Source: Pseudomonadota bacterium (lineage in GTDB: Bacteria > Pseudomonadota > Gammaproteobacteria > JAKAQQ01). From it: a stretch of 64,000 bases of DNA. Made by a program: the position numbers and the translations under genes. The stretch lies in assembly GCA_021839245.1 (NCBI GenBank), contig JAKCBQ010000001.1:41032-105031 (forward strand), read 5' to 3'. Shown here piece by piece: positions 9,848 through 29,703 of this stretch (its first letter is position 1; each line of letters opens with the position of its first letter). Below the pieces are notes generated by a model. The model had not been told where the DNA came from and did no database searches. It was given only the letters and a program-made list of their open reading frames with translations.

Positions 9848-11955
9848 GCGTGAATATGTACCGGGCGGCCCGCGGTCGTAGAGCTGGGTGCGTGCGGCAC
9901 GGCTCCGTGCAGGTGGCGAGACGTCAGGGGCGGCAACACGGGACGATGGCTGTGTGGCATCAACGGAATCGGTCGTTCATGCCGGAGCTCCAAAGCACGA
10001 AGGAACCGGTACGCTCGAGCGGTCTGGATTCCCGTTTGTGTCCGCGTCCGGAGAATGGTGGGTTGCAGGAACACCATGAGGTCCTGTTTTTGCTTGGATG
10101 TACTGGCGTAGCGGAAAAGGTACCCGAGCAACGGGATGTCGCCCAGCAGAGGGACTTTTTCCTTGGTTTCGCTGATCTGATCGCTGATGAGGCCCCCCAA
10201 AACAATGATCTGATGATTGTTGGCGATCACCGTCGTCGAGATTTTGCGGTTGTTGGTGATGAGATCAATCGCACCCTGAACGGACGGAGCCAAGCTCGAG
10301 ACTTTTTGCTTGATGTTGAGGATGACGCTGTTTCCCGCACTGACCCGTGGCTTGATCTGAAGGGTGATTCCCACTTCGTGACGCTGCACGGTCTGGAAAG
10401 GATTGACCACGCCCGCGCCCGCCGTTGACGCGGCCGACGTGTACGCGTACTGCCCCGTCAAAAACGGGACGCGTTGTCCGACCTCGATTTTGGCCTTCTG
10501 GTTGTCGAGCGCAACGACGCTGGGCGTCGACAGAATGTTCGTGTTGGTGTTCGAGGCGAGGGCATTGAGAAGGGCTGCGAAACTCAAGCCGTTGTTCACG
10601 ATGCGACCCACACCGAAGAGCAGGCCGTCGGGGATGTTGATGGACGCGAGAGGGGAGGCGGTGACACCCGTCGACGTTGTTGTGCCTGTGCTCGTCAAGC
10701 CCCCGCTCGTCAGCCCCTCGTAAGCTTCGCCGAGCTGGACCACTCCCGTGCCGGTCCCGCTGAAGTTGGTGAGACTCGCCGCCCCGGCTCCCAGAGCGGC
10801 CCAAGTGATGCCCAGCTGAGCGGCAGCGTTGGAGGTCAGTTCGGCAATGATGGCCTGGACAAGAACTTGTGCCCGTCGAACGTCCAGCTGGTCAATGACG
10901 CTACGGATCGATCGCATCAGTTTTGCCGGTGCGGTGACCACAAGGGCATTGATCGAGTCATCTGCAACGACGACGGGGCGAATCCCGGACGGTGCCGCAA
11001 CGCCTTTGCCGTGAGGCTGCTCATGACTGATGGCCTTGACGTAGGCCTCTAGAATCTTGGCCATGCTTTTAGCTCGCGCGTAGCGCAACCGTATGACCTG
11101 AGTGTTGCCGCCGTTCCGCACCGGGTGATCGAGACTGACGATCAACGCCCGCAATTCAAGGCGCTCCGAGCGCGATCCCGCGATCAGAATGCTGTTGGTC
11201 CTCGGATCGGCGACGAGTCGGATCGGGATGGCCTCGTCTGATTGCTCGCCTCGATAGAGCGTGTTGAGCAGCCGCACGACGTTGCTGGCGGATGCGTAAT
11301 GAAGAGGAACGACGTCGATTCCCATCGTGCTCGGTCTATCAACCCGTCGAATAATGCGCAACATCCGCGCAACGTTTGAAGCTCTGTCCGAAATGATCAG
11401 CATGTTGGAGGGCGTATACGCCGAGAGCTGTGCCGACGGGCTCATGAGAGGGCGGAGAACAGGTACCAGCTGCGCCGCGTTGGTGTAGCGCAACCTCACC
11501 ACCTCTGTGACCGGTTCTTCTCCCGGGATACCAGGAGCAAAGCCGACGGCTCGACCGGGCATTTGGTGGGCCGAAAGCGAGGGAACAATTTTGTAGGTGT
11601 CGTTTCCTACAGGGATGGCGGCATAGCCGTGCACGGCCAGCATGGCGAGAAACGTGGCGTACACCGCGTCCGGCGGGATGGGGTGGGTCGAGATCATCGT
11701 GATATCGCCTTGCACCCTGGGGTCGAGAATAAAGTTCTTGCCCGTGACGCGACTGATCATGCGCACCACGCTGGCGATGGGTGCGTGCTTGAAGTTAAGA
11801 AGCGTTCCTTGCGCGCGACCCGTTTGCGCTGGTGTGGCTTGAGCGGAACATGCGAGAGGGACAAAAAAAGCCGCCGCAACCAGAACCAAAAGACGAATCC
11901 GTCTTGGTCCGATCGGCGACAGCAAGGGGAAGGGCGAGGCGGGCATGAGTGGCAC
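9844..11955 (-). CDS. gspD: type II secretion system secretin GspD
   Basis: 703 aa with signal peptide, N0-N3 domains and a C-terminal secretin domain (VPLLGDIPLLGYLFR...). Confidence 0.9.
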   Translation of the reverse strand: MPLMPASPFPLLSPIGPRRIRLLVLVAAAFFVPLACSAQATPAQTGRAQGTLLNFKHAPIASVVRMISRVTGKNFILDPRVQGDITMISTHPIPPDAVYATFLAMLAVHGYAAIPVGNDTYKIVPSLSAHQMPGRAVGFAPGIPGEEPVTEVVRLRYTNAAQLVPVLRPLMSPSAQLSAYTPSNMLIISDRASNVARMLRIIRRVDRPSTMGIDVVPLHYASASNVVRLLNTLYRGEQSDEAIPIRLVADPRTNSILIAGSRSERLELRALIVSLDHPVRNGGNTQVIRLRYARAKSMAKILEAYVKAISHEQPHGKGVAAPSGIRPVVVADDSINALVVTAPAKLMRSIRSVIDQLDVRRAQVLVQAIIAELTSNAAAQLGITWAALGAGAASLTNFSGTGTGVVQLGEAYEGLTSGGLTSTGTTTSTGVTASPLASINIPDGLLFGVGRIVNNGLSFAALLNALASNTNTNILSTPSVVALDNQKAKIEVGQRVPFLTGQYAYTSAASTAGAGVVNPFQTVQRHEVGITLQIKPRVSAGNSVILNIKQKVSSLAPSVQGAIDLITNNRKISTTVIANNHQIIVLGGLISDQISETKEKVPLLGDIPLLGYLFRYASTSKQKQDLMVFLQPTILRTRTQTGIQTARAYRFLRALELRHERPIPLMPHSHRPVLPPLTSRHLHGAVPHAPSSTTAGRPVHIHA

Positions 11956-21671: not shown

Positions 21672-21824
21672 CGAGCGCTTAGGCTTCCCCAGCTTGGGAT
21701 GGATTTGGGGGTATGTGCTCTACACGTTGGCTCTTTTTGCTTCGATGTGGTACATTCTTCGCAGTGTCGGCGGGTTCCGTCGAGAGCGGTCTTCCCCGGC
21801 AGCCACCTATCTGATGAGGTCACC

Positions 21825-23138
21825 ATGAGAAAAGGCTACTGTTTGCGACTGTCTTGGATGGGCGTATGCGCTCTGGCGGTTGCTCTCTTACTCAACCCCA
21901 AGGCCGCGATGGCCAACCGTCTGGGACAGCACTATTCCCATAACAGGTACATGCTGAATCACACGGACTACTTGCACATCAAGCGGGCCGAGCATTTGAT
22001 TAACCGGAAGGAATACGCGCGCGCGCGTCAGGGCCTCGTCTCCTTTCTGTCGTTCGTCCGTTACGACCGTTACCCAAAGGCTTTGGTGCTTGATCTCATT
22101 GCCGAAACCTATCTCGACGAAGGGAACTATCGAGGGGCCGTTCCCTACATGGAACGGGCTCTGGCCGTCCACGGGTTGCCTCGTGCTCAACAAAGGAACC
22201 TGTCCTACAACTTGGTGATCGGGTACGTGAACATGAGGCGTTATCACGCCGCGCTCAATCTCCTCAACCACATCCTCCCGCAGTTCCGTCATCCACCTCT
22301 TTCGCTCCTCTCATTTGCCGCCGTCGTCCATTATCAGGCTGGCGATTATGCGGGAGCGACTCATTATGCGCGAGAAGTCCTGGCCGCTGATCATACCGCC
22401 GGGAAAACACCCGATAAGTCGGCGTACGAAATCATCCTCAACTCGGATGTCAAAGATAAAAATTATGCTCAGGCCGCACACACCCTTCATGCCATGCTCC
22501 GCTATTGGCCGCACAACGGTGCCTATTGGTCCGCATTGGTCAGTACAGAGCTTGAAATGAAGCACGACCGACGTGCGCTGGGAACGCTCAACCACGCTTA
22601 TCAGTTGGGTTTGATTCGTGATCAAGCGGATCTGAACAACCTGGTTTCTTTGGAGCTCTCCTACGGCAACCCGGTTACTGCGGCCACCCTCCTTAAGTCT
22701 CTCATTGCCTCGGGACGTATTCCCAATTCACAGCGCAACAAAGAGCTTCTCGTCGCCGCCTGGGCAAGAGCGCACAATACGGTAGAACTCGCTCGGGCTG
22801 TGGCGGCGGCCGCCCCGGGTGCGAAATCGGGCAGCATGTACATGTACGAAGCCAGCATGTGTTATCAGAAGAGCGACTGGGTCTGTGTGACGCGCTCTGT
22901 TCGCAAGGCTCTCGCCAAGGGGGCTATGAGCAGAACCCAAACCGGGAATGCATACGTTCTTCTTGGTACGGCCTACGTGAAGAGAAAACTGTATGGACCT
23001 GCTCTTCCTGTGTTCAAAAAGGTTCTTGCCGGTTACGGAGCGGGTGTGCACAAGCAGGCCGCTCAGTGGATCAAGTACCTGAACTATCGCTTGAGCATTG
23101 AGGAGGCCCGTCACGGACCCGGTGTCCTCAAACCGTAA
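21825..23138 (+). CDS. secreted TPR-like repeat protein
   Basis: Signal peptide MRKGYCLRLSWMGVCALAVALLLNPKAAMA followed by helical-repeat sequence. The ORF track starts 42 codons upstream, before the signal peptide. Confidence 0.5.
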   Translation: MRKGYCLRLSWMGVCALAVALLLNPKAAMANRLGQHYSHNRYMLNHTDYLHIKRAEHLINRKEYARARQGLVSFLSFVRYDRYPKALVLDLIAETYLDEGNYRGAVPYMERALAVHGLPRAQQRNLSYNLVIGYVNMRRYHAALNLLNHILPQFRHPPLSLLSFAAVVHYQAGDYAGATHYAREVLAADHTAGKTPDKSAYEIILNSDVKDKNYAQAAHTLHAMLRYWPHNGAYWSALVSTELEMKHDRRALGTLNHAYQLGLIRDQADLNNLVSLELSYGNPVTAATLLKSLIASGRIPNSQRNKELLVAAWARAHNTVELARAVAAAAPGAKSGSMYMYEASMCYQKSDWVCVTRSVRKALAKGAMSRTQTGNAYVLLGTAYVKRKLYGPALPVFKKVLAGYGAGVHKQAAQWIKYLNYRLSIEEARHGPGVLKP

Positions 23139-23423
23139 TGGTCGGTCAGACTCTGTCCATTTAACCAGACCATCCAGAGGGGCCAACTGACGACTCGGTT
23201 GGCCCCTTTATTGATTCACGGCTTTGAGACTACAAGTGAAGGGACCCGAGCTTCTGGGGGCATTGAGATATGTTCCTATTTGTTTGATGTGTTTTTTCAT
23301 TGAGATCAGAAAAATCAATAAGATGACAACCATCACGCTCTGGGAGCAGACGTGACAGGAAACTTATTTGAAATAGACGTATAGTGCATCTCAGCTCTCT
23401 AAATACTGGTGGGAGATTTTCGG

Positions 23424-23969
23424 GTGGGCGCAGAACGGAACTTCTTCCCCTTTGGATATGGATCCATACTCGTCTTGGCAGCTGTGCTTGTTGGGTGCAC
23501 CCCCTATTACCAGGCTGGCCAAGGGGGCTACTCGGCATATTCCACGCAGGACTTGGGGGGAACATATCAGTACGGAGGTTTTGAGGACACGTTTGGTCCT
23601 CCATCAGGTGGTTGGATCTATGGAAGCTTTGGGTACCCGAATCTTTATCCACTGTCCCCCAACTGGTATGTGTCTCCTTACCCCTATAGCCCCTATCCTG
23701 TGTACGGGCCGCCGGTGTTCGTGGGATCACCGCCCACCCCGCCACCTCCGCCAAGCGGACCTTTACCACCACCTCCGCCGGGCGGTAGCCCGCCGCCTCC
23801 CCCGCCTGGGGCTGGACCTCCTCCTATGGGCCCGCCTAATCCCGCCCCCGTGGGCCCACCGCCTCCTCCCGCCGGACCGCCCGGTGGAAGATACTCGCCA
23901 TTAATGCCGACGATTCCCAACCCAGCACGTCCCCATCCCTGCCCCAGAGGCAAGCTCGTATGCCCCTAA
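23424..23969 (+). CDS. Tyr/Gly/Pro-rich lipoprotein, family 1 (member a)
   Basis: GTG start chosen by nucleotide and protein homology to the 25549 N-terminus. Lipobox LVGC. A YQYGGFEDTFGPPSGGWIYGSFGYP...SPYPYSPYPVYGPP module is followed by a degenerate Pro-rich tail. It is a paralog of 27125 and the 28142 C-terminus. Confidence 0.55.
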   Translation: MGAERNFFPFGYGSILVLAAVLVGCTPYYQAGQGGYSAYSTQDLGGTYQYGGFEDTFGPPSGGWIYGSFGYPNLYPLSPNWYVSPYPYSPYPVYGPPVFVGSPPTPPPPPSGPLPPPPPGGSPPPPPPGAGPPPMGPPNPAPVGPPPPPAGPPGGRYSPLMPTIPNPARPHPCPRGKLVCP

Positions 23970-24119
23970 TTCTGGCCCGTCAACTTTTTTGAAGATTGTG
24001 CGTTTTAGTGATATGCAAAAATCACTGACGCCGGAGATGCTGATTGATCGAACAGAAGATGGTGAACGACTTGTGTAAAGCTGTCGCGCTTTGCGCTTCT
24101 TGCTCTTGAAGGAGGATTT

Positions 24120-25076
24120 ATGAAACACAAAACCCGATGGTACGCCTGTGCTCTTTTGGTTGTTTCGCTCGCATTGATTCCTGCACCCAAAGCACGAGCG
24201 GGTTTTTTTATCGGTCTCAGCGGAGCTAACTTCGCCTTTTCCATCAACAGTGGTCTTGGCGTCTATCAGGCCGCGGAGTATCCTGGGTTTCTGTACTGCA
24301 CGAACGTCTTCTGTTACCGGTGGGCGGGTTACGGATGGTATTACGCACCCTGGGGCGGAGGGCCCTGGATGTTCGCCCCAGCCGATTTTTTGCTGCCCCC
24401 CCCTCTTGTCTATGGCCCGCCGCCTCCTCTGGTCGTCGTCTACAGGCCGTATTTCGTATGGTGGCGTGGGTACATCGGTCCCTGGTACGCCATTCACCAC
24501 CCCGTTTGGTGGCGTCAGAATCGCGTTTACATCACGCACTACACCGTATGGCGTACCCACGTGATTCGCACGTATGGGCCGCATGTCTCTTCCGCGGTCT
24601 GGACGCGACCCCGGGCCTTGGGCATGCGCCCTCGATTTTTGCCCAAGAGCCACCCAGATATTCGCTGGGCGCAGCACCAGTGGGCAAGAAACCGGCCGGA
24701 CCTTTACGGCCGAGCCCGTGTTGAAGCCTTTTATCGCCAGCATCCCCAGTTTGGTCGCGCGCGTCCGATGCGACAGCCGATCAGGCGCTTCGGCGGGCCT
24801 GCCGGGTTCCGTGGTCCTCGAGGCAGAGGTTTTCCGCAAGGTGGGATGGGCAACAGGATGCATCCTGTCCCCAACAGGGGTTACGGCTACCGGCAGGGGA
24901 GAGAAGGGCAGCCATTTCGTCCTGTCGGACCCGGCGTTCGTGGGCCGGGCAGGGTCTATGGAAGACCCATGGCTCCGGCGATGCGTCCACAGGGGTATCG
25001 CCCTGCTCCGCTGAGGCGTTTACCGCAGCGTGGTGGGGGCCCCCGTCGTTGTCGCAATCCCAGACACTGTTTCTGA
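24120..25076 (+). CDS. secreted Trp/Tyr/Arg-rich protein, family 2 (member a)
   Basis: Sec signal peptide. SNFAFSINSGLGVYQ...YRPYFVWWRGYIGPWYAIHHPVWW core. Very basic C-terminus ending CRNPRHCF. About 90% identical to 25549. Confidence 0.55.
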   Translation: MKHKTRWYACALLVVSLALIPAPKARAGFFIGLSGANFAFSINSGLGVYQAAEYPGFLYCTNVFCYRWAGYGWYYAPWGGGPWMFAPADFLLPPPLVYGPPPPLVVVYRPYFVWWRGYIGPWYAIHHPVWWRQNRVYITHYTVWRTHVIRTYGPHVSSAVWTRPRALGMRPRFLPKSHPDIRWAQHQWARNRPDLYGRARVEAFYRQHPQFGRARPMRQPIRRFGGPAGFRGPRGRGFPQGGMGNRMHPVPNRGYGYRQGREGQPFRPVGPGVRGPGRVYGRPMAPAMRPQGYRPAPLRRLPQRGGGPRRCRNPRHCF

Positions 25077-25102
25077 GGGCCTGAAAGTTCGCAAAATTCG
25101 TT

Positions 25103-25136
25103 CGTGGGGTGTCATGTTTGTGCATGACGCCCCACG
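25103..25136 (+). terminator. stem-loop (CGTGGGGTGTCATG/CATGACGCCCCACG) 3' of gene 24120, no U-tract
   Basis: Inverted repeat read from the sequence. The equivalent stem-loop with compensatory changes lies at 26558..26589 after the paralog. Confidence 0.35.
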
Positions 25137-25548
25137 AAGTGGTAGGAGACTACGACGTTTGTGACAATGGGTCGCACTTGTGCACTGGCGCAAAGGATGC
25201 TCAAAGACCTGTGGCCCCTTCAGTGAAGACGATTGATGCGTGAAAAACAAGATAACTGTCTTGGTAAACGCTGAGGAGGTCATTCCTTAAAAGCCCAAGC
25301 GTCTTCGCCTTTCCAACCTCTTTCCGATGAGGCTAATTCTAATTAGCGCGTCAAAGTGAACACAACCAGAATCCCGGAGGTTATCGAGTGATCCATATCC
25401 GGCGAGTTTTGCTTATTTAAATAAATAATATCAACATGATAATGATCATCAAGAGATTATGCATGAAGAATAAGTGGACGATTTGAAGTCGATGTATAGT
25501 AATGGTTAAATTCGCGGCTCAATCAACACCGAGGGAGGAGATTTTCAG

Positions 25549-26532
25549 ATGCGCGCAACGGGGAAGTTATTTTCTTGCAGATATTGGTCGATCCTTGTCA
25601 TGGCAGCGTTGCTTGTTGCCTGCACCCCTTATTATTACCAGGTTGGGCAAGGTGGTTACTACGCCGGCGGATCTAACTTCGCCTTTTCCATCAACAGTGG
25701 TCTTGGCGTGTATCAGACGGCGGGCTATCCTGGGTTTCTGTACTGCACGAACGCCTTCTGTTACCGGTGGGCGGGCTACGGATGGTATTACGCACCTTGG
25801 AGCGGAGGGCCCTGGATGATCGCTCCCGCCAATTATTTATTGCCTCCCCCTCTTGTCTATGGCCCGCCGCCGCCTTTGGTCGTCGTCTACAGGCCGTATT
25901 TCGTATGGTGGCGTGGGTACATCGGCCCTTGGTACGCCATTCACCACCCCGTTTGGTGGCGGCGGAATCGCGTTTACATCACGCACTATACCGTATGGCG
26001 TACCCATGTGATTCGGACGTATGGGCCGCATGTCTCTTCCGCGGTCTGGACACGACCTAGGGCTTTGGGCATGCGTCCTCGATTTTTGCCCAAGAACCAC
26101 CCAGATATTCGTTGGGCGCAGCACCAGTGGGCAAGAAGCCGGCCGAATCTTTACGGCCGAGGCCCTGTTGGAGCTTTTGATCGCCAGCATCCCCAGTTTG
26201 GTCACGCGCGCCCGATGCGCGCGATGCGGCAGCCGATCAGGCACTTCGGCGGACCTGCAGGGTTCCGTGGCCCTCGAGGCAGGGGTTTCCCGCAAGGTGG
26301 GATGGGCAACAGGATGCATCCTGTCCCCAACAGGGGTTACGGCTATCGGCAGGGGAGAGCAGGGCAGCCATTTCGACCTGTTGGACCCGGCGTTCGTGGG
26401 CCGGGCAGGGTCTATGGAAGACCTGCAGCTCCGGCGATGCGTCCACAGGGGTATCGCCCTGCTCCGCTGAGGCGTTTACCGCAGCGCGGTGGAGGCCCCC
26501 GTCGTTGTCGCAATCCCAGACACTGTTTCTGA
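25549..26532 (+). CDS. Trp/Tyr/Arg-rich lipoprotein, family 2 (member b); chimeric family-1-like N-terminus
   Basis: Lipobox LLVAC plus TPYYYQVGQGGYY are shared with 23424. From SNFAFSINSG onward it is near-identical to 24120, and the substitutions are mostly synonymous or conservative. Shine-Dalgarno GGGAGGAG precedes the ATG. Confidence 0.6.
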   Translation: MRATGKLFSCRYWSILVMAALLVACTPYYYQVGQGGYYAGGSNFAFSINSGLGVYQTAGYPGFLYCTNAFCYRWAGYGWYYAPWSGGPWMIAPANYLLPPPLVYGPPPPLVVVYRPYFVWWRGYIGPWYAIHHPVWWRRNRVYITHYTVWRTHVIRTYGPHVSSAVWTRPRALGMRPRFLPKNHPDIRWAQHQWARSRPNLYGRGPVGAFDRQHPQFGHARPMRAMRQPIRHFGGPAGFRGPRGRGFPQGGMGNRMHPVPNRGYGYRQGRAGQPFRPVGPGVRGPGRVYGRPAAPAMRPQGYRPAPLRRLPQRGGGPRRCRNPRHCF

Positions 26533-26557
26533 GAGCTTGAAAGTTCACAAGTTAATA

Positions 26558-26589
26558 CGTGGTGTGTCGTACGGACATGACGCACCACG
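26558..26589 (+). terminator. stem-loop 3' of gene 25549 (paralogous to 25103..25136)
   Basis: CGTGGTGTGTCGT/ACGGACATGACGCACCACG with G-U compatible changes relative to the first copy. Confidence 0.35.
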
Positions 26590-26605
26590 TGGGATCAGCC
26601 CAGGA

Positions 26606-27010
<405 letters not shown>

Positions 27011-27124
27011 CGCGGCGAAAGCCAAGGTGTTTTTATACAAGGCCTCAAGTTTGGCATTGTCAATGACATGCTGGCTCTCAACATTCATGTTTTTTATGAA
27101 AATTATCCTCATTAGACGTTCTGC

Positions 27125-27958
27125 ATGAAAAGTGATAGATTGAGTGTAAGTGAGACTTGTTCTCTGTCAGCAACTAGGCACAAAGTGAACAGGCGCAGAT
27201 GGGCTCATTTTTTTCGATGCGCGGCTCCGTTAGCCATGGCCATCACTCTAGGTCTCTCTGGTTGTGCAATCACACCCTACTCTGGGTCCCAGGCCTACGG
27301 TTGGTACTCCACATATGGAGGGGGAGGCGGAACCTACGACTTCAATGGCTTCCAGGAAACCTTCGGATGGCCAGGGGCATGGGAAGGGGGAAGCTATAAC
27401 TACCCTGGGTACTATGAATACAACTACCCGTACGTTCCTCCTTACTCCGCATATCCTTACCCTGTCTTTACCCAGTCTCCCCCGCCGCCTCCCGGAGGAG
27501 GGCCCCCGCCGCCTCCCGGAGGAGGGCCTCCGCCGCCTCCCGGAGGAGGGCCTCCGCCGCCTCCCGGAGGAGGGCCTCCGCCACCTCCCGGAGGAGGGCC
27601 TCCGCCACCTCCCGGAGGGGGGTTCCCGCCACCTCCTGGAGGGGGGTTCCCGCCACCTCCTGGAGGAGGGCCCCCGCCACCTCCTGGAGGGGGGTTCCCG
27701 CCATCTCCTGGAGGAGGGCCCCCGCCACCTCCTGGAGGGGGGTTCCCGCCACCTCCTGGAGGAGGGCCCCCGCCACCTCCTGGAGGAGGGCCCCCGCCAC
27801 CTCCTGGAGGGGGGTTCCCGCCATCTCCTGGAGGAGGGCCCCCGCCACTTGGTCCTCTTGGGGGAGGGCCATTTGGGCCGCCGCCCGGTGGCCCGCCTGG
27901 AGGAGGACCTCCGTCCCCTCCCGGCCCACCTGGTGGTGGACCACCGTTCAATCCCTAA
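27125..27958 (+). CDS. Tyr/Gly/Pro-rich lipoprotein, family 1 (member b) with (PPPPPGGG)n tail
   Basis: Lipobox LSGC. YGWYSTYGGGGGTYDFNGFQETFGWPGAWEGGSYNYPGYYEYNYPY module homologous to 23424 and 28142. It is followed by about 15 tandem PPPPPGGG units. The start codon is uncertain. Confidence 0.5.
   Translation: MKSDRLSVSETCSLSATRHKVNRRRWAHFFRCAAPLAMAITLGLSGCAITPYSGSQAYGWYSTYGGGGGTYDFNGFQETFGWPGAWEGGSYNYPGYYEYNYPYVPPYSAYPYPVFTQSPPPPPGGGPPPPPGGGPPPPPGGGPPPPPGGGPPPPPGGGPPPPPGGGFPPPPGGGFPPPPGGGPPPPPGGGFPPSPGGGPPPPPGGGFPPPPGGGPPPPPGGGPPPPPGGGFPPSPGGGPPPLGPLGGGPFGPPPGGPPGGGPPSPPGPPGGGPPFNP
27478..27846 (+). repeat. 24-nt tandem coding repeat (cctcccggaggagggcctccgccg)n encoding (PPPPPGGG)n
   Basis: Direct reading of the sequence: about 15 near-perfect units with G-to-F and P-to-S variants. 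It generates spurious long ORFs on the other five frames. Confidence 0.9.
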
Positions 27959-28141
27959 CCATCGCCGCTTCCCCAGCGCGTCCCGAGCCCTCTTCCATTA
28001 CCGAGGATGCCGCGGTCGTTTGATCCCTCATCTCTACCCTGGCGGGCGGGTCTCGTATCCCTAAGTTCGATGATCGTCAGACCAGTAAGTTCACAAGTCA
28101 TAGCTTGAGGGTTCAATTATTCATTTCTGGAGCACATCGCC

Positions 28142-28654
28142 ATGAAACATCGCAAACTATCGGCAGGCGTGCTCGCAGCCACTTGCCTCCTTCTGGTTTT
28201 GCCCCTAGCTAAAGCGGGATCTTCCGGCGCTGAGCACAGGCCCGACCATAAGCCCGGAGCCTCCCGTCCGGTATTTCGGCCGAGGCTTGTCTATCGTCTT
28301 CCCTTTCAAGATACGATGCATCTTTATCAGGGTCAGCATAGTCTCCAGATCAAACGTCGCAGTTGGCATGGATGTCAAAACCCGCGCCTCTGTGTCGAAT
28401 TGCCTCATCAGTGGTGCCTGTTTGGATGCGCAATCAAACTCGGCAGTTTTCCCCGCGTTAATCCCCAGGATTATGGTTGGTACACTGCGTACGGAGAAGG
28501 AGGAGGGCTAGTCAACAACATCTACGACATTGGTGGGTTCCAAGAAAACTTTGGCTGGCCGCCAAAGGCATGGGTGGGCGGAAATTACTACGATACCGGG
28601 TACTATGAATTCGGCTATCCGTATCTCTCTTATCCTGCCTACCCTAAACGCTAG
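28142..28654 (+). CDS. secreted Tyr/Gly-rich protein, family 1 (member c)
   Basis: Sec signal peptide (PLAKA/GSS). C-terminal YGWYTAYGEGGG...GGFQENFGWPPKAWVGGNYYDTGYYEFGYPYLSYPAYP module homologous to 27125 and 23424. Confidence 0.5.
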   Translation: MKHRKLSAGVLAATCLLLVLPLAKAGSSGAEHRPDHKPGASRPVFRPRLVYRLPFQDTMHLYQGQHSLQIKRRSWHGCQNPRLCVELPHQWCLFGCAIKLGSFPRVNPQDYGWYTAYGEGGGLVNNIYDIGGFQENFGWPPKAWVGGNYYDTGYYEFGYPYLSYPAYPKR

Positions 28655-28736
28655 TCCCTCTAGATCTCTGTAGCCGGTCTTTAATCAAACGATTGTCGTG
28701 ATCGTTTACGTGTCAGCGTCTCTTGTGCCCGTAACC

Positions 28737-28808
28737 AGATGACGTTTCCGACAACGTCTCACCAGACTAGAGATACCCATGATTCACATGTGAGAAAAAA
28801 TCGATTGC
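28737..28808. repeat. ~75-bp repeat element, copy B
   Basis: Homologous to 26606..26680. Located between the convergent genes 28142 (+) and 28839 (-). Confidence 0.6.
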
Positions 28809-28838
28809 CTCCCACTGGCATCATCGTTTGCCATATCG

Positions 28839-29432
28839 TCAAAGCTGTGACCAGCACTGATTCCAAAACTCGATCGCTGGGCTGTTATGTTCCCATCCCA
28901 GGCGGGAAATACTAGCGGCATCGAGACGCAATTGATCGCCAAACCGCAGATTCATGTCAAGCCAAATACAGGCTAGAGACCGCAAGATATGCCCGTGGGC
29001 GAAGCAAAGTATCTGCTCACAGCCGGCAGACGACCAACCTTTCAGCAGCCTCCGGCAGCGCCGACGGATGTCATGACGACTTTCACCTTCCGGCGCGCCG
29101 CAGCGAAAAATGCTCCAGTTGGGATTTTCTTGATGGATCTCGGCTGTGGTTTTGCCCTCATAGCGGCCGTAATACCATTCGTGAAGATCCGGTTCCACCC
29201 GTGGATCAAAACCGGCGATCATCGCCGTGTGACGGGCTCGCAGCAAAGGGCTTGTGTAGACACTGTCGAAACGGTATTTGCCGGCTTCGAAGTAGCGTCG
29301 TAATGCCTCGGCTTGATTTCGACCGTTGTCATTCAGGTCAAGGTCGGTGACCGAGGTATGCCTTCCCGTGGCCGCCCATTCCGTCATTCCGTGTCGGACC
29401 ATTGTGATGGAACGAATCGAAGAGTGGTTCAT
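28839..29432 (-). CDS. histidine phosphatase family protein (phosphoglycerate-mutase-like)
   Basis: N-terminal catalytic RHG motif (ITMVRHGMTEW) and a downstream conserved His (CFAHGH). Confidence 0.65.
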   Translation of the reverse strand: MNHSSIRSITMVRHGMTEWAATGRHTSVTDLDLNDNGRNQAEALRRYFEAGKYRFDSVYTSPLLRARHTAMIAGFDPRVEPDLHEWYYGRYEGKTTAEIHQENPNWSIFRCGAPEGESRHDIRRRCRRLLKGWSSAGCEQILCFAHGHILRSLACIWLDMNLRFGDQLRLDAASISRLGWEHNSPAIEFWNQCWSQL

Positions 29433-29703
29433 GGAGCACCTCGATGACGACGGCAGTCAGTGGAGAATCATTATGAGCGTGCTGGTGCTGCAGGTGTCGC
29501 CATGGATTGAGGTCCGCCTTTACAATCCAGGTCGCATGAGATATAGACGCCACGCCGCAGCAATCATTGGTGACGTTTTTGGTTTGTGTGCCCCGATCCA
29601 AATCCAGTCAGGATCATGACGGGCACTGAATTACTTCCTCGGAAGAGCATTGCCCGGAGGGAATGCGTGCCCCTTCCGTCGAAGGGTCAGTTTTAAAGCC
29701 TCA

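Follow-up and report, generated by a model that had tools for sequence, protein, structure and literature searches.

Organization of the Gene Cluster

The window considered here is a stretch of 64,000 nucleotides of contig JAKCBQ010000001.1 (assembly GCA_021839245.1, positions 41,032 to 105,031 of the forward strand) from a gammaproteobacterium of the GTDB lineage JAKAQQ01. Five genes that are read from the same strand, designated A to E (Table 1), lie in it between a gene encoding a TPR protein (21699-23138) and a histidine-phosphatase gene on the minus strand (28839-29432). The third of them, gene C, is the main subject of this report; judged by the alignments described below, it is a chimera in which a B-type body follows a 5' cassette of A type, the latter comprising a promoter-like box, a ribosome-binding site, a signal with a lipobox and ~12 residues at the start of the mature protein. 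The A protein itself combines a Tyr/Gly-rich N-domain with a polyproline region and has a CxxxxxxC motif at its C-terminus. Searches of Pfam and NCBIfam with genes A to E returned no matches at E<=1, and an Rfam scan of positions 23000-29500 gave only spurious mir-671 matches, in the repeat array of gene D. Throughout, the prefix w denotes the genome of the window and s that of a sister lineage (wB, sB, wC, sC, and so on).

Table 1. Positions of the genes, cassettes, repeat copies and hairpins in the window.
Feature	Position	Strand	Description
Gene A	23424..23969	+	Lipoprotein; lipobox LVGC (matches the regular expression); GTG start
Gene B	24120..25076	+	318 aa; Sec/signal peptidase I-type signal
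Gene C	25549..26532	+	327 aa; chimeric lipoprotein form of B; ATG at 25549
Gene D	27125..27958	+	A-family lipoprotein; likely start GTG at 27185; lipobox LSGC, read by eye
Gene E	28142..28654	+	Apparent fusion of a B-family-type Sec signal to a D-type body
A 5' cassette	23364..23532	+	TTTGAA..GACGTATAGT box, GGAG ribosome-binding site, GTG start, signal peptide, CTPYYQAGQGGY
C A-type 5' cassette	25484..25660	+	TTTGAA..GATGTATAGT box, GGAGGAG ribosome-binding site, ATG 25549, MRATGKLFSCRYWSILVMAALLVAC, then TPYYYQVGQGGYY
Chimera breakpoint	25661..25666	+	A-type homology stops at 25660; B-type homology starts at 25667
Repeat copy 1	24220..25136	+	B body and 60 nt of 3' flank; 91% identical to copy 2
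Repeat copy 2	25667..26589	+	C body and 57 nt of 3' flank
B-C spacer	25137..25483		347 nt; orthologous spacer in sister contig L020
3' hairpin after B	25101..25138	+	17-bp stem; -35.5 kcal/mol; z -5.3; no T-tract
3' hairpin after C	26557..26590	+	14-bp stem; -31.1 kcal/mol; z -4.3

The 5' Cassette of Gene C and the Predicted Export Signals

A first-pass annotation of this DNA, made from the letters alone, had described B and C as near-identical genes with unrelated 5' ends, had recognized the 5' end of C as a homolog of that of A, and had proposed that a module swap by recombination was responsible. The observations were borne out, and the module swap is supported. Between the 5' ends of B and C, the best local alignment score was 20, which is the background level, and the N-terminal peptides that had been quoted for the two proteins are exact. 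The 5' end of C (25537-25660), on the other hand, aligned with that of A (23412-23532) at 95 of 128 columns (74%) with a score of 87, against a mean of 18 and a maximum of 27 among 300 shuffles. Global alignment carries this similarity upstream into a TTTGAA…GAYGTATAGT block, and the C cassette as a whole is 72-74% identical to that of A. The GAYGTATAGT box is invariant in A and C, both in this genome and in the sister genome, and it occurs at two sites only in the 64-kb window, one upstream of each of these genes; a promoter scan at the box yielded no convincing sigma-70 promoter. The passage from A-type to B-type homology is sharp (Table 1). With both parents homologous to their respective parts, a defined breakpoint and an architecture that is kept in P0001, the ortholog in the sister lineage, C has the properties of a chimeric (fusion) gene.

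The swap is accompanied by a change of predicted signal class, as had also been stated earlier. B begins with MKHKTRWYACALLVVSLALIPAPKARA followed by GFF, and its AxA-type cleavage site (…PAPKARA before GFFIG), together with the lack of any lipobox match, identifies it as a candidate substrate of signal peptidase I (SPase I) exported by the Sec route. The signal of C, MRATGKLFSCRYWSILVMAALLVAC, has the lipobox LLVAC and conforms to a PROSITE-style rule (a PS51257-style regular expression) that is matched by A and C and not by B; it calls for a positively charged n-region, an uncharged h-region and a lipobox of the form [LVI][ASTVI][GAS]C with the Cys at position 15-35. This lipobox is kept in P0001. 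B would thus be released to the periplasm once cleaved by SPase I, while C would be N-terminally lipidated and tethered to the membrane following processing by Lgt and signal peptidase II (SPase II), such that the same mature domain would be made in two forms from two different upstream regions. A difference in export or anchoring route, periplasmic for B and lipid-anchored for C, is accordingly predicted by these motifs. By the Escherichia coli rule for lipoproteins, the Thr at +2 of C would imply sorting to the outer membrane.

The Shared Body and Its 3' Hairpins

Local alignment of 24220-25136 with 25667-26589 gave 843 identical columns among 928 (91%), with 16 gap columns, and a repeat search recovered the pair as two families with 92-94% identity. 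The repeat covers the bodies of B and C, from about codon 34 of the former and codon 40 of the latter through the stop, and a further ~60 nt downstream. Its copies are offset by 1447 nt at the 5' end and by 1456 nt at the 3' end, and the duplicated part accounts for 917 or 923 nt (0.92 kb) of each 1447-1456 nt period. Outside it lie the 530 nt between the copies (25137-25666), of which the last ~180 nt are A-derived and the rest have no homolog in the window; the spacer portion is AT-rich at 25400-25480 and carries a promoter-like site at 25416-25443. A strict tandem duplication consists of contiguous head-to-tail units in which the whole period has been copied, and the B/C repeat is not of this form. 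The '1.43-kb tandem duplication' of the first-pass annotation has therefore to be given up: the copies stand 530 nt apart, and only 0.92 kb was copied. The underlying duplication, earlier placed at 24301-25076 and 25741-26532 with 90-95% identity, does stand, but its limits do not, for the repeat extends ~80 nt further 5' and ~57-60 nt further 3', and 24301 pairs with 25748 and not with 25741.

Each stop codon is followed by the motif GAAAGTTC(G/A)CAA and by a stem-loop, both of which fall within the repeat, as had been noted. A compensatory change distinguishes the two hairpins at one stem position (GGGG/CCCC versus GGTG/CACC). Neither hairpin qualifies as an intrinsic (Rho-independent) terminator, there being no T-run after the stem, and a terminator scan made no call; stabilization of an RNA 3' end or non-canonical termination may be considered as candidate roles. 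A third copy of AAGTTCACAAGT, a motif otherwise found after the stops of B and C, is present at 28087-28098, between D and E. The 10-mer has three matches where 0.2 would be expected, and no extended homology was detected in the surroundings of this third copy.

The Sister Lineage and the Evolution of the Gene Pair

A sister lineage, collinear with the window at ~89-90% nucleotide identity, is represented by two contigs that share 99.9% identity, L001 (JAJZYM010000002) and L020 (DAIAOW010000020). L001 carries, in order, A, B, a scaffold gap of 100 N (10981-11081) and ~80 nt from the end of a second copy, hairpin included, and L020 carries the 3' end of B, the orthologous spacer, P0001 (330 aa) and the phosphatase (His_Phos) gene. 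P0001 has the lipobox N-terminus and the junction of C. Given that the chimera is present in the sister species with orthologous flanks, the fusion predates the split of the two species. The gap that immediately follows B in L001, combined with the start of L020 inside the 3' end of B, mimics at first sight a 'deleted' C. Exactly at the chimera junction, P0001 also has a tandem duplication of seven codons (YAGESNF / YAGGSNF; residues 39-45, L020 ~690-720).

The 5' cassettes and the bodies differ in how they group. For the cassettes, identities are 83% (wA-sA), 77% (wC-sC) and 66-72% (A-C); those of A and C are 26-34% diverged, and they group as (wA,sA) and (wC,sC). For the bodies, the paralogs are the closer pairs, at 91.8% (wB-wC) and 96.0% (sB-sC), versus 88.7% (wB-sB) and 88.0% (wC-sC) for the orthologs. 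Among the informative sites of the four sequences in the shared body, 56 group the paralogs, seven group the orthologs and one follows the third pattern. Columns 1-260 of the 926 contain all seven ortholog-grouping sites (P about 1e-4 under random placement), and sB and sC show 100% identity in the alignment windows for columns 400-800 and 98% in the last window. Synonymous divergence (dS) is 0.22 between the paralogs of the window, compared with 0.37-0.44 between orthologs. Paralogs that are closer than orthologs despite a duplication that preceded speciation, and a similarity distributed in tracts, are the marks of concerted evolution; on these patterns, the B and C bodies are repeatedly homogenized by intragenic gene conversion across their 3' two-thirds, and it is for this reason that the pair looks young. 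The ratio of nonsynonymous to synonymous divergence (dN/dS) was 0.09-0.17 across all pairs (0.15-0.17 for comparisons involving C), and the signal modules compared between species gave 0.33 for that of C and 0.20 for that of B, which indicates that both genes and both signals are kept by selection.

Direction of the Exchange and the A-B Pair

A B-type signal, in which …P.PKARA precedes the cleavage site and GFFIG follows it, is common to P0002 and P0004-P0007, the closest homologs (48-81% identity to C). In the outgroup contig L027, lipA is followed by the TPR gene, an A-like lipoprotein (172 aa, lipobox FLAAC), the SPase I-type B homolog P0004 and a transposase, and in L030 an A-like lipoprotein of 209 aa lies directly upstream of P0006. 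In the orthologs of A and in D, the residues that follow the Cys (…GQ.AYG.YST…YGGFQETFGWP) run on into the A-family domain, and the CTPYYQxGQGGY segment is therefore native to A. By these comparisons, B of the Sec type and its pairing with A represent the ancestral state, and C is the derived gene, made of an A 5' cassette and a B body.

An A-like polyproline lipoprotein is found directly upstream of a B-type protein in every close relative for which enough flanking DNA is available (L027 5386-6981; L030 4522-6206; window 23424-25076). Both proteins also have a short Cys-x5/6-Cys motif at the C-terminus, …PCPRGKLVCP in A and …RCRNPRHCF in B. The conserved pairing and the common motif hint that the two proteins work together. 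Between the two genes of the window, a terminator-like hairpin with a T-rich tail (24073-24096) lies just upstream of the AGGAGG ribosome-binding site of B, and hence A and B may be separately transcribed or attenuated. Genes for Mutator/IS256-type transposases adjoin B-family genes in two other lineages (L027 7699-8891; L031 2-199), that of L027 occupying the position held by C in the window.

Origin of Gene C and Alternative Explanations

C probably arose before the species split, when a second copy of the B body was joined at 25661-25666 to an A-type 5' cassette of ~180 nt. Since then, both copies have been held under purifying selection and their 3' two-thirds have repeatedly been homogenized by gene conversion, with two envelope forms of the protein as the predicted outcome. 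The simplest route would be a duplication of the A-B pair followed by an internal deletion, or else an illegitimate exchange between A and a copy of B. Several observations weigh against this reconstruction. No homolog of the B-C spacer was detected upstream of A or elsewhere in the window, and the 'duplicate A-B, then delete' route consequently lacks direct support and stays an inference. Some distant members of the family that have lipoboxes also have Y/G-rich linkers loosely like that of C, and C may, though less probably, have kept an ancient lipoprotein N-terminus. The sB and sC sequences come from two metagenome-assembled genomes (MAGs) of one lineage whose contigs break at the repeat, and the 100% identical tract is perhaps in part an effect of the assembly graph. 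Finally, the signal calls for B and C are founded on the regular expression and on conservation.

The linkers just mentioned, some of which have a C-x-x-YY…GY pattern after the Cys, would also suit the reverse course, in which the lipoprotein form C is ancestral, B gained its Sec signal and A borrowed the 5' cassette of C; so would the lipoboxes of about half of the family, distant members included. It is nevertheless unlikely, as every close relative of B and C (48-65% identity) carries the B-type signal and stands downstream of an A-like lipoprotein, the post-Cys TPYYQxGQGGY of C has its aligned counterpart in A orthologs and in D, in which the A-family domain comes next, and no C-type gene was seen in L027 or L030. 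Quite unlikely, too, is the recent, lineage-specific tandem duplication that the first-pass annotation had favored, with B copied shortly ago and the new copy then acquiring the 5' end of A. The 91% identity of B and C at the DNA level, closer than that of either to its ortholog (88-89%), would fit such a history, but this likeness is due to gene conversion: the same chimera, with its junction, spacer and flanks, occurs in a sister species that is ~10-11% diverged, the A and C cassettes have diverged far and group by gene, and the confinement of ortholog-grouping sites to the 5' 260 columns is the pattern of conversion tracts and not of independent duplications.

A further possibility is that C (or B) is redundant and decaying, has no role of its own, and differs in signal without consequence. 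In favor of it, the neighborhood is in flux, with its remnant of katG, the apparent chimera E known from this species alone, and repeats that vary. It is nonetheless very unlikely: both species have intact open reading frames (ORFs) for the two genes, one and the same C protein is encoded on 15 contigs of the public collection, and the dN/dS values of C and of both signal modules are as low as those given above. There remains the question of an assembly artefact, raised by the first-pass annotation: a single gene might have been expanded or mis-joined in the assembly of a metagenome. Sister-lineage contigs do break or contain a gap exactly at the B/C repeat, and several contigs of the species itself end within the neighboring D repeat array. 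Six independently assembled contigs, from different ENA samples (ERZ27237xxx) and GCA_027436645.1, however match the window at 99.8-100% identity over a stretch reaching from the TPR gene, across A-B-C, into D, and the copies differ by ~9% (~75 substituted positions and indels with gaps of 4, 5, 2, 2, 1, and 2 columns), a divergence that errors of assembly do not create. As these assemblies share the structure, the A-B-C arrangement is real; with unrelated 5' ends, differing 3' flanks and two intact ORFs under purifying selection besides, an artefact is extremely unlikely. The ancient fusion of an A cassette to a B-body copy, followed by selection and conversion, is hence retained as the probable account.

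Genes D and E and the Segment Preceding the Phosphatase Gene

Gene E appears to be the converse of C, namely a B-type signal on a D-type body. The body of E is 43% identical to D over 122 residues, and the aligned stretch includes a decayed copy of the signal region of D. Its N-terminus (MKHRKLSAGVLAATCLLLVLPLAKAG) had a Smith-Waterman score of 65 with the signal of P0007, versus at most 36 with 19 other signals, and a score of 65 was reached by none of 500 shuffles. DNA homology was detected neither between the 5' ends of E and B nor between the contig of P0007 (L031) and the 5' end of E, and the likeness of E to P0007 is thus at the protein level only. The case is weaker than that for C because it rests on the protein-level similarity of a short signal. 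Taken with C, the putative chimera E would mean that the cluster holds all four combinations of two signal types with two body types. A homolog search with E found only itself, such that E is known solely from this species, and neither D nor E is present in the sister lineage. E comprises a D-like 5' region and N-domain, is truncated ahead of the polyproline part, and may represent either a working chimera or one in decay.

Gene D contains a tandem array of ~15 copies of a 24-nt unit encoding PPPPPGGG / FPPPPGGG (27479-27870). Between fixed flanking markers, the span is 411 nt in the window; three independent contigs lack 4, 6, and 7 of the units and have spans of 315, 267, and 243 nt, respectively, and three further contigs end inside the array. 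The differences in length represent either real copy-number variation or assembly collapse. On those contigs, the gene callers chose an alternative frame for D (that of the ORF at 27264).

A direct repeat of 72 nt (26606-26677 and 28737-28808; 86% identity) surrounds 2.2 kb of DNA in which a katG fragment, D and E are located. Neither this DNA nor either copy of the repeat is present in the sister lineage, where ~26610 is joined directly to ~28815. No other copy of the 72-nt repeat was found in the window or in the fetched loci, and the pair may mark an insertion or a deletion. The katG fragment, on the minus strand at 26779-26886, corresponds to an N-terminal piece of a catalase-peroxidase (KatG), residues ~35-72 of ~720 (NCBIfam E 2e-7); the reading frame then decays, leaving a pseudogene scar between C and D.

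The B/C Protein Family

Mature B and C are strongly basic, with isoelectric points (pI) of 11.4-11.5 (11.5 for B), and consist of ~14% each of Arg, Gly and Pro. A Trp/Tyr/Pro-rich core of ~150 residues with many invariant Trp and Tyr and a central PPPLVYGPPPP motif is followed by an Arg/Gly/Pro-rich tail of ~140 residues (pI 12) that ends in RRCRNPRHCF. A profile search of 1.84 billion representative proteins recovered only 31 clusters at 50% identity, and the genomes matched are MAGs labeled Proteobacteria, Acidiferrobacter, Acidithiobacillus and 'Deltaproteobacteria'; from the names of the samples, the habitat appears to be mine tailings or acid drainage. Roughly 20 lipobox forms and 17 AxA forms were counted among ~45 sequences inspected, and with both signal classes present across the family, the domain evidently works in either context. 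Ten family members gave no match in Pfam or NCBIfam, the only matches being to TPR, for the gene upstream of the cluster, and a sequence search of the PDB with the family profile gave none. AlphaFold models of full-length B built with nine sequences were unusable, at a predicted local distance difference test score (pLDDT) of 43, and the 160-residue core modeled with 29 sequences reached a pLDDT of 82. No relative of this confidently modeled core was found among solved structures. At 17 distant family loci, neither a conserved neighborhood beyond lineage-specific synteny nor an A-like neighbor was seen.

The best guess from composition and signals is that B and C are envelope-associated structural or binding proteins of acid-mine-drainage bacteria, and one may guess that their aromatic core interacts with the polyproline tract of A. 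A more elaborate proposal is doubtful and is put forward as an outside chance: A (and D) would serve as the lipid-anchored partner of the Trp/Tyr core of B in an undescribed envelope system, C would anchor itself and so bypass A, and the re-sorting of signals and bodies would tune location, the core being a new fold with possibly a polyproline-binding or membrane-surface function.

Known Parallels and Significance

Concerted evolution by gene conversion, with copies within a genome more alike than orthologs, is a feature of the tuf genes and of the omp paralogs of Helicobacter pylori. B and C resemble these in the tract-like distribution of their similarity and in the closeness of paralogs relative to orthologs; they differ in that conversion stops before the 5' cassette, so that the targeting signals stay distinct. 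The ospE/ospF/erp genes of Borrelia burgdorferi reportedly share an 'upstream homology box', an upstream and leader cassette that precedes unrelated mature domains and was spread among paralogs by recombination; these genes are said to be numerous, borne on plasmids or prophages, and to encode lipoproteins without exception. The present locus likewise places an upstream and lipoprotein leader cassette before unrelated bodies, but it is chromosomal, has two or three carriers of the cassette (A, C and, weakly, D), and includes a non-lipoprotein sibling, B, that keeps the same mature domain as C.

A further parallel is provided by the tandem lipoprotein-like (lpl) paralogs of Staphylococcus aureus, in which recombination within ORFs shuffles 5' and 3' parts and each ORF is a mosaic whose 5' end moves with the upstream intergenic DNA (Tsuru and Kobayashi, 2008; PMC2568036). 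The likeness lies in tandem exported or lipoprotein paralogs with a 5' end that travels with upstream DNA. The differences are that here there are two body copies only, that the 5' donor A belongs to a different family, that no central conserved recombination site was found, and that the swap alters the class of signal (SPase I versus SPase II) and not variable regions. In eukaryotes, duplicates kept with nearly the same mature protein and different N-terminal targeting have been described as subcellular relocalization (PMC2397506, PMC3879971). Unlike the organelles of those studies, the compartments concerned here are those of a bacterial envelope, and they are deduced from signal motifs alone.

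What is described is a known kind of event, gene duplication with shuffling of 5' ends, in an uncharacterized family, and nothing points to a new genetic mechanism. A caution follows for the dating of such pairs, in that high identity between paralogs does not date a duplication: gene conversion can keep two bodies alike over the long term while sparing their signals. For the organism, the locus would represent a natural example of a soluble and a lipid-anchored form of one exported protein obtained by the swap of a ~180-nt promoter-plus-signal cassette, and the small, unannotated B/C family to which these proteins belong could merit characterization.

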